Sequence record: NC_041937.1
Direction: 5' to 3' (one strand)
Source: Escherichia phage V18
DNA: 64,000 bases
The position numbers and the translations under genes were made by a program. Positions 29,483-39,043 of this stretch are shown piece by piece. The notes beneath the pieces were generated by a model. That model saw nothing but the letters and a program-made list of their open reading frames with translations. It did not search any database and had not been told where the DNA came from. Position 1 is the stretch's first letter. Each line of letters opens with the position of its first letter.

Positions 29483-29809
29483 ATGGGTATACCGATCACT
29501 GTAAAAGAATTGAATGAACGTGATGCAGGCGGTCTATGGCCTGCACGAAAAATACGCTGCGTCTATATGAAAGAGAATCTTGAACATCTTGATCAACAGA
29601 TAAAGGTCGGCGATATTTTCGAGGTCTTCTATTCCAATCGGCGCAACTGGGAAACCATTCAGCCTTCTGGTTTTGTTCTTGCCAAACTTGACACTGGAGA
29701 AGTGATTATCCCTGGGTTGGATATTGTCTTCGAAATTATCCAGGAGTGGGATCCGGATAAGATTAGATACGAAGAACTATTCGGTAAAGGTATTATCAAA
29801 CCTGTGTGA
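29483..29809 (+). CDS. hypothetical protein
   Basis: 108-aa ORF. Confidence 0.35.
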   Translation: MGIPITVKELNERDAGGLWPARKIRCVYMKENLEHLDQQIKVGDIFEVFYSNRRNWETIQPSGFVLAKLDTGEVIIPGLDIVFEIIQEWDPDKIRYEELFGKGIIKPV

Positions 29810-30796
29810 GGTGGATTATGTCTACAAAGGCGGCTAAATACTCTTACATGCCATCAACCTCTGCAGAGGTAGACTTTAGTTTCGATGTGTTTCCACTGTT
29901 TGAGGTGGTTCTGGCATACCCAACAATACTATCTACTCCTGAATCACTTGTGCCTGTTAAGTTGCAGAACGCTATGCATTCTATGCACTACAACAATAAA
30001 TGTAGGCACAGATGGTGTCAAGACGAGGAAAAAGATTTGGATAGTTTGAGGGATTTTGACAGTCACCTTTTGACACCTTTCAGCTACTCCAACCTTGATA
30101 AGCCTCATGGGTATAGCAAAATATCAAATTTAAGACACCTAGGACGCTCTGTGGCGTCCTTTTCTTTATCTGGTGCACGATTGCATACCTTGGACAGATA
30201 ATCCCGTTACAGAGCGTTTAAGAGCTTCCTACAAACAAATCTCTCTTTCGAGCGTAGCGAGAACGCACGTCCGTTTTGACCCAAATCACCATACGCTCGG
30301 ATTTTAACCAAACCCTCGCGGCGTTTCTGTTGACACATTACCGCTACCGTGATAGTATCCACACAGTTTGGAGAATATGGAATACACAATGAGAACATTG
30401 TCTGAAGTTTTAGTGGTGATCCTGATGATCATTACGTCTATAGCGGCTGTTGCCGGAATACTCACGGGTGGAACATGATCAACACACATGCATCTGAAGG
30501 AGTGACGACATGTAGCCTGGATGAGCCAGTTAAAGAGGAAAACTTAGATTCTGATGACTCTTCATCTTCGTCCCAGACAGATCCTGAGGCTGATGACCTA
30601 ACGTGGGAAGACATCGTAGACATCTGGTTCTCTATTATGCCTGAGCACGAAGAGTTCAGAGGTGGTAGACTATGAAGCACCGAGCCCACACAGATTCCTC
30701 ATGCTAAAGCATGGCCTGAAGAGGCAAACGTGCATAATTCCAGCGTATTGGAACGTATAAAACCCTGTTCACACTCTCATTTCCAGAGGAGATTTC

Positions 30797-31012
30797 ATGA
30801 AGATAGAAATATTTGGTGGAGCTGACAACACTCGTGGCCTGATTTACCTTGAATTTGATGAATCATACCTGCCAGAGGTGTTAAATATAGACTCTGTTGC
30901 TGAGGCTTTGGGAGTAAACCCTAAAGAACTCCACTCTTGTGCTGAGATCGATGGTTGGGAAGAGACCATGAACATTGATTTCAGTGAAGTGGAGGATGAA
31001 CCGCTAGACTGA
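30797..31012 (+). CDS. small acidic protein, last gene of the plus-strand arm
   Basis: 71 aa; MKIEIFGG…; acidic C-terminus. Confidence 0.4.
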   Translation: MKIEIFGGADNTRGLIYLEFDESYLPEVLNIDSVAEALGVNPKELHSCAEIDGWEETMNIDFSEVEDEPLD

Positions 31013-31362
31013 CGCACAATTAGCTGCCCGGCTAAAGTGCTGGAAGCACCTATAACACATCTTTCAACTAAATTTCCTACCACCACAATCACTTACCTCC
31101 CGCACATGACTGTTTGCTTGTTTAGTGAGCAGTCATGCCTTGACATTCTTGCCTATCCTGATAAAATTAAGTTCTTCTCTTTTCTTTTACCGAGTAATTC
31201 GGGTTTTCTGTTCTCTTCGGTTTGAAGGGGTATGGAGATACACCTGAGTGAACAGGGTGAACAACCGAACCATTAGCTATGGCATTAGCATGGCGAAGCG
31301 GACGGGTGACGAAAGAGGGGCCGGAGGACACCAGTCACTGCCATATGATATATGGGTGATAA

Positions 31363-31902
31363 CCTGAAGAGTCTGAATAAGTGTTTAAGTACCAGTCAGA
31401 GGAAAAGGTGAATGGTAGCCGAAGGGGGGAGGGGGGTTTCTTGTATCTTTAATTTGTATATTATGTATACACTTGTAAACCAATCTAATCTGAATCTGTT
31501 TACCACACAAAGCGGATAGAGACAAATATTGCCTATTAAACTTGAATTATTTATAGAAAATACCACAACACCCCTTAAGTCTTTGATTTACACACAAATC
31601 CTACAGATATTCAACCTCCATATTTAACATACTTGTAACATATTCCATACTCTACCTGTCTGATCAATTTCCCAACTACATTCTCATATTTTCCCTGTCT
31701 GTACTACCCCTGCCCCGCCGGGAGTCCCGTCATATCTGGCTTTCCAGCAAATATCACACCCACAAATATCATTGCCTGAAGAGGGTTTCATCCCATAATA
31801 CCTGCCTTACCTGAAGAGCGCTTCATACACCACGTAAATTTTTTAATTGACCTCCCCCTGCCCCTCCGGAGAGGTTGGCTTTTCCCACACAGACCTGAAG
31901 AG
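31363..31902. repeat. dispersed CCTGAAGAG repeat family in the inter-arm non-coding region
   Basis: Exact 9-mer at 31363-31371, 31775-31783, 31810-31818, 31894-31902; also CCCTGCCCCGCCGGGAG (about 31708) and CCCTGCCCCTCCGGAGAG (about 31853). Confidence 0.5.
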
Positions 31903-32495
31903 TCAGCCAGAAATATCTGAATAGGCCCGATCTGCCCAGTCAGGAGCCAGTAGCGACTGGAGTGCTGCCAGGCGGACGGAATGGGAATACTTCTCATTCT
32001 TATAACAATTCTCAAATATCGAGGCAGTGAGAGAAATTAATAGGCCAGGCCGTTCACACAGTGGCACAACATTTGCAACCTATCCTGTGGGGATGAATGA
32101 GAATACCTATCATTGTGAGAACTATTATCATTACGGGCAATTTAACATAATACCCATTATGCGCACCACTGGCGATACATACAGGGATTGATACCATGAG
32201 TTACAGTTTACACACATAACAATTATATTTCTTACTATTTGTGTGGGATATAGTTAGCAGCCAATAGATTAGATATTGACCTGTAGACTTCCAACCGTCT
32301 GGACGTCTAAACGCCCACACACCAAGGGTTATACATACATCGCTGAATGTAAACAGGGCCGCAAAAATGCTACCATACCAGTTTGTAAATTTTTCATGCA
32401 GCACTTGACAAAGAGGAGAAAAACTTGTCTGACACAATGTCACACAATATGACACTTTACACTGGACACACTAGGCACAAAAAAAAAAAACTGCA

Positions 32496-32720
32496 GTGAC
32501 TAGGTCACCCCTTCAGGTGTTTCTATGACATAATATAAAAGCAGGGCAACTATTACAAATCTAAAGTTGCCTTGCTTGTTATGTCATGATTAACTAAATA
32601 CAAGGCAACTATGATCTGATTAATAGTTTGCAGACAAACTATCACGGGGGTGATGGTTACTGCTTTTATATTATGTCGCGACTCCGTCGCGCCATGCCAT
32701 TCGTTTGCATAGTTGCCTTA
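32496..32720. repeat. iteron-like locus: nested inverted repeats and GGCAACT repeats (candidate origin/operator)
   Basis: Palindrome GTGACTAGGTCAC 32496-32508; 18-bp perfect inverted repeat GACATAATATAAAAGCAG 32527-32544 vs 32660-32677; CAAGGCAACT(T/A) at 32601-32610 (+) and 32564-32574 (-); AAGGCAACTATG at 32602-32613 (+) and 32708-32719 (-). Confidence 0.55.
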
Positions 32721-33370
32721 TTGTTACAGATAAAATAATTGTATTGTTAATTATTTCTTATCTTTCTATTAGTCATCTAATGATTCCAGTTAGTATAGTA
32801 ACGTATAGTAAACATTAGACGACTAAATATTTCTCTGTTTATGATAACTCACCGTAATAATTTCGGACTGTTTACGAAAAATGTTGACACCCTGGCTGAT
32901 TTATGTTATGCAATTTAAACGAATAATTATTTTATGCAGGTATTGACTATTCCGTTATTCTATGGTTGGAATAAATACTTAGCAGGCTATAGAATGGTGA
33001 GCGTACGTAAATTCTGAGATCTGTCGGCTATAGTTATACCCGATTTTTCACGTAGAACACGCTTTCGATGCTGTGTAAGTGTATGACTTATAAAGATTTT
33101 TAGTTGTTGACAAGATATTGGAGATGTGCATCAGGTTAAAATTTGTGCAATAGCGGCATTACGTGCACTTTTGGGAGAGAAAACGGGTAAAAATGGACTT
33201 GCTACCACACAATGAAAAATTATGCAATAGCTATTTTACATGTATGTTTGTACAGTGCGGGCAATTGATGGCTCGTCAATTATTCCACTTGCCAGGTAGG
33301 GCCGTTTATGGTAGGGGGAAGAGCAGACAAAAAGAAAGGGGCCTAAGCCCTTGATAATTCAGTTAAAAAA

Positions 33371-33790
33371 TTATAATGATTCGTATATTTCAAAAATCCG
33401 ATTTGCCAGGTCGTTACGGTAGCGGAATTTTTCCTCACGTTTGATCATCAGATCTTTAAAGCCATATTCTTTAAGCACTTCATTAACTTTATGGCGGCAC
33501 ACCTTCATATTATCTTGAGCGTCACCAATAAACTTGTTGCTGTGGTGCATTGCTTTAATTTCTTCTTCCAGGACCAGGGCAACTACCCGGACCGGATCAA
33601 GCTGGTAGGCGGTAACATCGATGCGGCATTGTAGACGGCTTTTAACGTCTGCCACCGGATATACTGCAACCTCTTCCCCGTCAACATTGACAATAACTAG
33701 TTTACCATCGATCTCGAATCCTTTCGCCGCCGGACCGTGACAAAAAGCGTTATCAAAGCTATATGCCGGATTATTAGATTTAATGTTCAT
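33371..33790 (-). CDS. hypothetical protein, first gene of the minus-strand arm
   Basis: 139-aa ORF; hairpin GGGGCC-taa-GCCC at about 33330-33350 downstream. Confidence 0.4.
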   Translation of the reverse strand: MNIKSNNPAYSFDNAFCHGPAAKGFEIDGKLVIVNVDGEEVAVYPVADVKSRLQCRIDVTAYQLDPVRVVALVLEEEIKAMHHSNKFIGDAQDNMKVCRHKVNEVLKEYGFKDLMIKREEKFRYRNDLANRIFEIYESL

Positions 33791-34945
33791 GGTGTTTTTA
33801 CCTCTTAGTTAATTTTCTTACAACTTCCCTTCAAAAAAGAATATAGCAAAACTGCCGATCCCTGTCAACCAAGGATGGCATAATTTTTATGTGATCAAGG
33901 GGCTTTATTGCCCCTGACCATGTAACTTGTTGTATTATTTGTTATTCATCCAGTTTTCCCAAGCTGCCTGATAATCTGCCTCACTGCGGCGGATCTCTTC
34001 TTGCTCTTCAAGCCGGATCTCTTCTTCCAGGTACCCCAAGATATCGGCTTTTTTGGTCTGGCGTAACATCCAATCATCTTTTTTACGGGTAAAGATCTTA
34101 TATGCTTTCTCGCAAACCTCTTTTTTGCTACCTTTTTGGACTTTAAGAACTTTGTAGGCCATGTACTGAACTAGTTTGAGCTGATCAAGACGTTTCATGA
34201 TGTTTACCTCTTTATGAGGTTCTGGTTTGGTGTGGGCCTTTTGGCCCGTGTCATTATCTTATTACTTACGGCGGCAAAATTCAAGTGTTTTTAATTGATA
34301 ATCTTCCTCAGCTTGGAGTACAACCGCTCGATCATTTCGTTGGCATTGGTGAAGCCATACCCTTGAGCGAACTCATCCGCGCCACCTTCGTGATCATGTT
34401 CTGCGTTCATCGCTTCCACAAAATGGAATTCAAGATTATTGAGGTAAGGGCTTGATGTTCCGTCCTCTTTTTCGATGAGATCCCAGATAGCATTAAAACG
34501 TGATTCAACTTCTTGATTAATCCAGCTTGACATAATGTTTTCCTCTCTTCTGGTTGTTGTGTGGGCACTTTTGCCCCTTCAAGATAAATAATATCCCACC
34601 ACCTGGCAGATGTCAACGGTTTTTATAGTTTTTATATAACAGGCACCCCCGGTGATTGTCTCCCCCCGTCGCCAGGTGCCACCCGTGAAACAAGTATAAC
34701 AAAAAACAGGACAAAAACAAGCCCTGTTTTGTAGATATAAGGATTATATTTTTTCGCCTATGTAGTCCGGCCTATTCTTTTCGGTCATACGCTTAAGCAT
34801 TTTTTGCAAAGAGTTAATATATAACACCAGATCGCTGACTACCAGGACAACATTAATCAGCACATACCTAACCATAAAGGGAAAGATCGCCAACATTGCC
34901 GCCACGATCCCCATGGTAATAATTACCTTTCTCATGGTTAGCGGT

Positions 34946-36326: not shown

Positions 36327-36611
36327 TTATTTATTGATAGCGTGCAACGGGAAAGGTACGCCAGGTTGATAGATAACTTTTACAACCTCATCGGGGCAAA
36401 AGAAATTACAAAATTCACCCCGATAAGCTTCATCTTCTTTTAATTCTTCATCAACATACTCAAAAAAGTAGTCGATGCTTGGATAATCCTGACCGGGATT
36501 ATAGTCAACCATTGTCAGGACTAGTTCAAGATCGTTGCGTAGGATATGCATACCTGCTTTTAAGTATTTTGCTTCCATTTCTACTACATCGCCAACGGTA
36601 ACAATAGCCAT
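36327..36611 (-). CDS. hypothetical protein
   Basis: 94 aa; a 17-nt poly-C/G tract lies 37 nt upstream of its start codon. Confidence 0.4.
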   Translation of the reverse strand: MAIVTVGDVVEMEAKYLKAGMHILRNDLELVLTMVDYNPGQDYPSIDYFFEYVDEELKEDEAYRGEFCNFFCPDEVVKVIYQPGVPFPLHAINK

Positions 36612-36647
36612 GATTTTAACTCCTATCTATCCGGTTAATGATTGGAG

Positions 36648-36664
36648 CCCCCCCCCCCCCCCCC
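36648..36664. repeat. homopolymeric C17 (G17 on minus strand) tract
   Basis: 17 consecutive C at 36648-36664 in the 5' region of gene 36327..36611. Confidence 0.8.
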
Positions 36665-36844
36665 GACACCCTTTATTATCCATATTGTAGGGCTTGATGC
36701 AAGTACTTCTTTAAAAATTTTTTAAGCGCCTTGGGGGCCGCTGTAGCGCTAAAATAATAAAGGCCATGCAACCGCATAGCTTTATGTGATTATATCGCTG
36801 CAGGCCCTACCATGGGCCTTATTTTGCATCATTTGCTGGAATTA

Positions 36845-37162
36845 TTAAGAGAAAACATCGTTCACAATAGCGATCACAATGCCGCCCACCTTGTCACGGT
36901 CAACAATGCACAAATCACCATAGATCATGTGGTAGTCTGGATGATCTTTCACGGAATAGTCAATGAGTGTCTTCTTATCGTCCAGCTTACTAACTTCCAT
37001 TCTCATAAAGATATGAGAATCATCAAAGGCATTATTCCGAAAAGTCATAACCTGACCGCCAGGGCACCCGGTGATTTCCACCTCCACGCCGTCTACGATC
37101 TGACCATCAAAGAAATAAAGATTATTAGCGGGTATAAACATGATCATTGCTCCTTTTTGCAC
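36845..37162 (-). CDS. hypothetical protein
   Basis: 105-aa ORF. Confidence 0.35.
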   Translation of the reverse strand: MQKGAMIMFIPANNLYFFDGQIVDGVEVEITGCPGGQVMTFRNNAFDDSHIFMRMEVSKLDDKKTLIDYSVKDHPDYHMIYGDLCIVDRDKVGGIVIAIVNDVFS

Positions 37163-37230: not shown

Positions 37231-37910
37231 TTTTACAGGCCTACAATCTCTTTATTCGTTTTACTGCTGCCTCAGCGCCTTGAGGGTAAAAATTATGGTA
37301 ACCAATCACGCGGGTAATACTGATCGCCGCCTGATGATCTTCATAATACCCCTTGAATATTTCTTGACCATCAACCAGCACAGCAATTTTTTCTTCTTTT
37401 TTGAAGTTAATAACGCGGATATTGTTGCTCATTTTGTTTCTCCTTTTGGAACTTTGTCTGTGTGGTGGGGAGTGTCTCCCCGTTGATTGTTATTATCCAT
37501 ATTCAGGACCGGATTGCAACACCCAGGGAGAAAAAATTTGAAAAGTTAGGCCCCAGGGATCGGGGCCGTTATCAGGCACGTACAGCGATAAAATACATCC
37601 CTACGCCTAACAATATTTCAAGGGCGATGATCTCCAGCCATACCATAACACGGCGCGCCTTATCGGTGCTGGGCTTATCCTTGGGTGTCATCGTCTCCCC
37701 CTTTCCTCCTGTTAGTAGTGACGTGGTTTGTAATGGTCCCCAGGAGTATTATCACCACGCACATTACAAGAAAAATTATCTCTGTCGTTGTTCGATCCAT
37801 TGTTATAAAACTCCTTAAGATCAGGCCTGAAAATAAAGCTTTCGTTATTGAATCCATCCCGCCAGGCGGCTGGCTTCAAATCTTCACTAAATGGATTAAT
37901 TAACGTGGTA

Positions 37911-38315: not shown

Positions 38316-39043
38316 TAAGGCGGCAAATATGCCGCCTGTTACCTGATTAAAAATTATCGCCGTAAAGCTTTCCGCTTTCTGCCCATACCACCACGCGAGG
38401 CATACTATCCCACACGTCTTGTTTTAGATTAACGCGTGCAATTCTTCGGTGGTGCTCATACCGGGCACGGGCTGATTGTATACTGCAAAACGACCGCCTG
38501 CATAATCATAGGCCAGGGTTAAATCACACTGGATCATCTTTTTGATCATGGCATTAAGCATGGCGTTAGCCGCATATTGATCACGTTTTAAAGGCAACTC
38601 TTTGATTAGTTTGCGATAGTTTTCGATATGGTCGCACACTGTTTCACGAGGAAGATCTTTCATATCCTCGCGAAAGGTAACCAGGTTAAACATAACGGTG
38701 TCAATAGCTTTGGTAGTGTTTTTCATGATGTTATCCTCTTTGTTTTGTGTGGGGCAAATCATCGCCCCCTTGAGTTTTAATATAGCAGGTTTTTAGGTTA
38801 TTGCAACACTTTATTTATGAAAAAGTCATCTCACCATATTCATCGACATCAAACCGCCAATCATTGGCCTCGATAAGGCCGATCAGGTTTTCTGCGGTGA
38901 ACTGTTCTAGATAGGCCTCCTCCAGGTCTACGTAAACCTTGCGGGATAGCTCCCGTACCGTCTCGGTGATCAGTTCTTCCAGTCTTCCACTTTGTTTTCT
39001 TGTTTGGCGGTCAGATCTAGCCAAGTGGTATCAATGTACCCGC

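Follow-up and report, generated by a model that had tools for sequence, protein, structure and literature searches.

The window analysed here is a 64-kb stretch (64,000 nt) of the genome record of Escherichia phage V18 (KY683736.1, 129,454 bp), an rV5-like Vequintavirus whose nearest GenBank genomes are ~94% identical. At positions 36648..36664 its plus strand reads as 17 uninterrupted C residues, corresponding to G17 on the minus (coding) strand, which bears all genes of the neighbourhood, and the 17 consecutive C described in the earlier note are borne out for the deposited sequence. The second-longest G/C run within the window measures 7 nt, and the one other long homopolymer is an A12 at 32479..32490. 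With between 5e-7 (base composition) and 1.5e-6 (first-order Markov) G/C runs of at least 17 nt expected by chance in the window, the tract is far beyond chance and non-random. The features around it are, in the direction of transcription:

36751..36780, minus strand: the upstream gene's intrinsic terminator, with stem-loop GCTATGC-GGTT-GCATGGC (36763..36780) followed by CTTTATTATTTT
36713..36723, minus strand: A6T5, an A/T-rich, UP-element-like stretch 5' of the -35, conserved in relatives
36697..36702, minus strand: predicted -35, TTGCAT, invariant across all related loci
36681..36696, minus strand: promoter spacer, 16 nt
36675..36680, minus strand: predicted -10, GATAAT, invariant across all related loci
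36665..36674, minus strand: AAAGGGTGTC, the 10 nt from the -10 to the tract, holding the predicted transcription start site (TSS) ~7 nt past the -10
36648..36664, minus strand: G17, standing where relatives have the hairpin's 5' arm, its loop and its innermost pair
36644..36647, minus strand: CTCC, what is left of the 3' arm (type-B relatives have CCUCC) and a complement of the Shine-Dalgarno GGAG
36620..36624, minus strand: Shine-Dalgarno sequence AGGAG
36327..36611, minus strand: downstream gene, 94 aa, ATG at 36611..36609, homologue of rV5 gp171/ORF176

The tract sets in 10 nt 3' of the -10 hexamer of a conserved sigma70-like promoter (TTGCAT-N16-GATAAT), whose hexamers match 8 of 12 consensus positions; this is under the threshold of a generic promoter scan, and the promoter is hence not listed there. 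A PhagePromoter annotation in phage Gotham overlaps the homologous site. On its other side the tract is separated from the ATG by exactly 36 nt (36612..36647), and its placement 37 nt upstream of the gene was correct. From the promoter sequence it is predicted to fall inside the transcribed mRNA leader, at roughly +4 to +20, so that its description as lying in the 5' region of a small gene applies to the predicted 5' UTR and not to the coding sequence. The order of the leader 3' of CTCC is AATCATTAACCGGATAG, AT, AGGAG and TTAAAATC, and then the ATG. The 94-aa product is an ORFan assigned to phrog_12610, a function-unknown family; it gave no significant Pfam match and matched PHROGs without a function, and the exact protein is present on many related contigs. 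That this is an early gene, as previously proposed, is plausible from its place among small leftward genes with sigma70-type promoters, and only plausible.

Upstream, the terminator is also annotated as such in EdH4, HdK5 and Alma; at window position 36781 its 5' arm is one G short in V18 relative to all relatives, which leaves an uncompensated bulge. Between this terminator and the 99-aa gene upstream, a large number of relatives, EdH4, ime, nimi and Alma among them, carry a ~350-nt extra gene (116 aa) that V18, rV5 and Gotham lack (window 36845..37162 compared with relatives).

Long G/C homopolymers in Neisseria, Bordetella, Campylobacter and Fletchervirus phages offer a generic precedent, and nothing beyond it, for classical phase-variable switching, where the length of the tract alters the -35/-10 spacing or the reading frame. 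Such a switch is hardly credible here. The tract (36648..36664) lies outside the spacer between the -35 (36697..36702) and the -10 (36675..36680), being wholly downstream of the latter, and it ends 36 nt 5' of the ATG (36611) rather than within a coding region. Because of this position, an effect on spacing or frame is impossible, and any effect would have to be exerted via leader-RNA structure. The single ORF that crosses the tract is a mechanical antisense ORF of 51 aa (36535..36690), and the length differences seen among relatives, not being multiples of 3, would shift its frame. The suggestion of a phase-variation switch survives insofar as the homologous run is length-polymorphic (G4-G9), whereas the spacing and frameshift modes are contradicted by position.

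Alleles of the site and the promoter-hairpin module

Related loci, 34 in all, were gathered from GenBank phages, IMG/VR, metagenomes, ENA and Logan assemblies, and each of them (34/34) has an interrupted G-arm/C-arm hairpin at the site of the tract. The alleles are of two types: type B reads AAAGGGTGTC G5-9 CGGTGAGG CCTCC, and type A reads AGGACGTGTC(A) G4-7 CGG C3-7. Every G-run length from 4 to 9 occurs among genomes with otherwise identical flanks, Illumina-derived assemblies included, and this between-genome variation indicates that slippage of the G-run is a natural phenomenon at this site. No run longer than G9 was found in any of the 34 loci, the 17-mer being unique to V18, and among the 60 GenBank matches listed none spans more than 202 nt for a 201-nt query. 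A gapped-pattern search for the locus returned 1 match in IMG/VR, 3 in metagenome contigs and 0 in GTDB genomes, with the 17-mer in none of them. Contigs encoding the exact 94-aa protein and the neighbouring 77-aa protein reach a best local identity of ~94%, and their G-run never exceeds 9.

The type B hairpin is GGGGGC-GGUGAG-GCCUCC and the type A hairpin GGGGG-GCGG-CCCCC, both with stems of 5-6 bp. Predicted folding energies are -11 to -13 kcal/mol in relatives, compared with a stem of just 4 bp at -6 kcal/mol in V18. Thermodynamics alone is insufficient as proof of a leader structure, since whole-leader folding z-scores are not significant. Both allele types retain the 5-6 bp stem and differ in the loop; the changes are one-sided (G:C to G:U), with no double compensatory substitutions in the relatives and the G and C arms merely retained.

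The same arrangement recurs elsewhere in the small-gene region, in the order sigma70-like promoter, 10-12 nt, GGG...CCC hairpin, usually a CA-rich leader (ACACAA.. or ACCACA..), and Shine-Dalgarno sequence. Its other copies are:

-35 starts at 38806, 37519, 36040, ~34617 and 41380, minus strand: at least 5 other promoters of the module
~38768, 37481, 36003, 34576 and 41340, minus strand: the hairpins of those modules

In relatives the module stems are kept and the loops differ, as in GGGGAG-ACA-CUCCCC versus GGGGA-GCAA-UCCCC. At six promoters the hairpin begins 10-12 nt past the -10, which would be ~+4 to +6 if the predicted TSS is 7 nt past the -10. This points to a modest but real feature of rV5-like phages, a short G...C stem-loop at a set distance after many early promoters. 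In the account of the rV5 genome, promoters of the sigma70 type and terminators are described, and the promoter-proximal hairpins are not (PMC3606486).

Inverted repeats at ~+4 to +25 of several promoters occupy a typical operator position, and the G...C repeat could in principle be a DNA-level operator, bound by a phage or host repressor that silences the early promoters. We regard this as quite improbable, because the sequence of the arms changes from one promoter to the next, the arms stand 3 to 9 nt apart and their lengths drift, and such drift and gap variation suit an RNA stem better than a protein site of fixed geometry. The fixed promoter distance, together with loops of 3 to 9 nt, favours an RNA hairpin at the transcripts' 5' ends over a protein operator. 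By analogy with mRNA decay in E. coli, the role of this hairpin is most likely that of a 5'-terminal stem-loop affecting mRNA stability and/or translation. With its drifting G arm, the promoter-hairpin module is a candidate control element, open to testing, for the stability or translation of early mRNAs.

Two other functions were considered for these hairpins and rejected. Intrinsic termination does not fit, as the hairpin at the tract site is followed by AAUCAUUAACC and no U-run follows any module hairpin; the EdH4 annotators labelled one of the module hairpins a terminator. A lambda nut/boxB-like antitermination hairpin was dismissed since the modules do not share a conserved loop.

Origin of the 17-mer in the V18 record

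On balance, and by a small step only, we favour the reading that the 17-mer is a consensus artefact over a slippery G-run and not a physical tract. The underlying element would be one copy of the recurring early promoter and 5' stem-loop module: in every relative, transcription is predicted to start a few nucleotides ahead of a hairpin with a G arm, a C arm and a stem of 5-6 bp, and the G arm is a short homopolymer drifting in length by slippage (G4-G9). The 17-mer would then be a G8+CGGTGAGGC allele with its four non-G bases all called G, reads or traces that disagreed by +/-1 on the length of the G-run having been merged across the G-rich loop into a poly-G consensus. Such an allele exists in 'nimi': G8 and CGGTGAGGC amount to 8 + 9 = 17 nt, they align gaplessly to the V18 window, and V18 has G at all four non-G positions. 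When reads with G7, G8 and G9 were simulated, their ungapped majority consensus was G16 followed by C's, which is nearly the observed G17 CTCC. The earlier note had left room for an assembly artefact, and this option gains support from the restriction of the tract to V18, from its having the length of the interrupted allele and from the frame-breaking 1-nt deletions in the record, to the point of being slightly preferred.

The V18 record has the appearance of an assembly left uncorrected and biased towards deletions. Aligned with RudolfGeigy over 46.7 kb, it shows 34 single-base deletions and 9 insertions, meaning that in 34 of the 43 single-base indels the base is absent from V18; 27 of these 34 fall in runs of at least 2 nt. 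Within 47 kb, ~12 conserved genes that align at 90-100% identity are split between reading frames. The primase/helicase ORF has 568 aa in V18 versus 692 aa, and PhoH is found as 121 + 151 aa versus 262 aa. Frame-breaking deletions of 1-2 nt lie at approximately these window positions:

17798, 26180, 26441, 28506, 38430 and 38982
39104, 40251, 41053, 45615, 50254 and 56790

Of eight V18 proteins found in the collection, five have a length shared with no other, or one other, listed cluster member. Indels near Dcm/Dam motifs (CCWGG/GATC; a nanopore signature) number 6 of 34 against a background of 7% of 13-mers, a mild enrichment that is not decisive. At 37549..37567, a minus-strand terminator has C4/G4 arms in V18 versus C5/G5 in RudolfGeigy (1-nt differences at 37555 and 37566); this pair is probably a real, compensated shortening of the arms, and therefore not every V18 indel is an error. 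In a non-coding stretch at 31424..31436 (GGGGGGAGGGGGG), the first run is one G longer in V18 than in RudolfGeigy.

Several points stand against an artefact. The dominant error of the record is base loss in short runs, which would shorten homopolymers, not create them; slippage of the G-run demonstrably occurs in nature, which makes a runaway expansion conceivable; and the local 3 kb of V18 is not unusually divergent, with no more private differences there than other genomes have. Long homopolymers are, moreover, natural in this genus, though they are A/T in the loci examined. Most Vequintaviruses of the BASEL collection carry one or two homopolymers of 10-15 nt each (bioRxiv 10.1101/2025.10.21.683753, Supplemental Table 13), and the long runs in the Vequintavirus loci examined here are A/T and lie between terminator and promoter; in well-sequenced members, runs of 10-15 nt are genuine. 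One of these, a variable A9-A12 run between the terminator and the promoter at 37519, occurs in relatives, and V18 has no long run there. Its positions, homologous to window ~37525..37545, are:

L001, 3028..3037
L011, 3640..3651
L023, 587..595

It is also possible, though we hold this only tentatively, that the tract is real. A G9-type run would have been expanded by replication slippage with loss of the loop CGGTGAGGC, giving a degenerate, probably hypermutable leader allele whose length tunes expression: the 5' hairpin would be gone, a 5' RNA G-quadruplex would take its place and the freed CUCC would pair with the Shine-Dalgarno sequence, making a non-coding contingency locus in a coliphage. 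The tract is, after all, present in a deposited record adopted by RefSeq, the typical errors of that record shorten runs, the homologous run takes lengths of G4 to G9 in relatives, Illumina assemblies included, and hypermutability has been reported for phage homopolymers of at least 6 nt (bioRxiv 10.1101/2025.10.21.683753). The G-quadruplex model of ViennaRNA predicts a 3-tetrad rG4 from at least 15 G, followed by CUCC:GGAG pairing, and G17 fits the pattern G3-N1-G3-N1-G3-N1-G3, a predicted fold that holds only if the 17-mer is real. Against this, the tract is unique with respect to the 34 loci and the 60 GenBank relatives listed, a 9-nt loss and a ~8-nt expansion would be needed that coincidentally restored the length of an existing allele, the hairpin kept in all relatives and at the paralogous promoters would be destroyed, and the record has ~12 frame-broken genes. 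The further proposition that G17 is both real and heterogeneous in length, with slippage toggling the leader between hairpin, G-quadruplex and anti-Shine-Dalgarno pairing to give graded expression of the ORFan early gene that is heritable yet reversible, is unlikely; to our knowledge no coliphage has been described with such a leader-toggling contingency mechanism. A real tract would be a rare case, for a lytic coliphage, of hypermutable sequence outside coding regions, and changes in its length could grade expression via leader structure.

Two other observations concern the records. The A12 at 32479..32490 is unique to V18, and all 30 relatives listed have 80-240 more bases at this place, a non-coding region (~2.5 kb long in a relative) with repeated GACAC motifs (~32430..32480) and no tRNAs within 29500..34500. 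It may be a real deletion or an assembly join; the suspicion that the A12 is an artefact was weakened by the natural occurrence of long A/T runs in the genus, in the BASEL table and in the loci examined. In addition, ~20 'Campylobacter phage' records, with Campylobacter jejuni given as host, share ~93% identity with this rV5-like phage of E. coli and are probably mislabelled or contaminant assemblies. They include:

MG065635, MG065646-47, MG065653, MG065659, MG065662 and MG065672-77

The preferred reading, a consensus artefact, has practical consequences. V18 (KY683736.1) is used in Russian therapeutic cocktails, and if the 17-mer is artefactual, re-sequencing of a RefSeq record with many frame-breaking errors is warranted. 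More generally, homopolymer 'switch' calls made from single records need a check at the level of reads.

Comparison with known systems

The 5'-terminal stem-loops of the ompA type, associated with the work of Emory, Bouvet and Belasco in 1992, reportedly stabilise mRNAs of E. coli; in this class a stable hairpin begins no more than ~4 nt from the 5' end. The phage leaders are like them in having a short GC-rich hairpin predicted near the 5' end, 3' of which lie an unstructured leader and a Shine-Dalgarno sequence. They differ in that the V18 record keeps only a 4-bp remnant, and in that the phage hairpin is without compensatory covariation and its TSS is a predicted one. The phage hairpin module recurs at many promoters of one phage.

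Homopolymer switches in promoter spacers are of the type found in Neisseria, Bordetella and Haemophilus. They share with V18 a G/C homopolymer near a promoter, but the V18 tract is 3' of the -10 and leaves the spacing unaffected. Should the tract be real, its closest described parallel is the tlpB mRNA leader of Helicobacter pylori, which contains a variable G-repeat targeted by the sRNA RepG (PMC8295292). As in tlpB, the phage site has a variable G-repeat in the 5' UTR, a homopolymeric run whose length differs between isolates and which could grade expression post-transcriptionally; unlike that of tlpB, the phage G-run is one arm of a hairpin.

Among lytic phages, T2 and T4 have homopolymeric simple sequence repeats (SSRs) as contingency loci, which act mainly by frameshifting of ORFs (bioRxiv 10.1101/2025.10.21.683753), and the receptor-binding genes of Fletchervirus carry poly-G tracts of 7-11 G (Sorensen et al. 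2021, as relayed in bioRxiv 10.1101/2025.10.21.683753). Like these, the V18 site is a homopolymer prone to slippage in the genome of a lytic phage, but its tract is non-coding and, at 17 nt, longer than any G/C run seen in its relatives.
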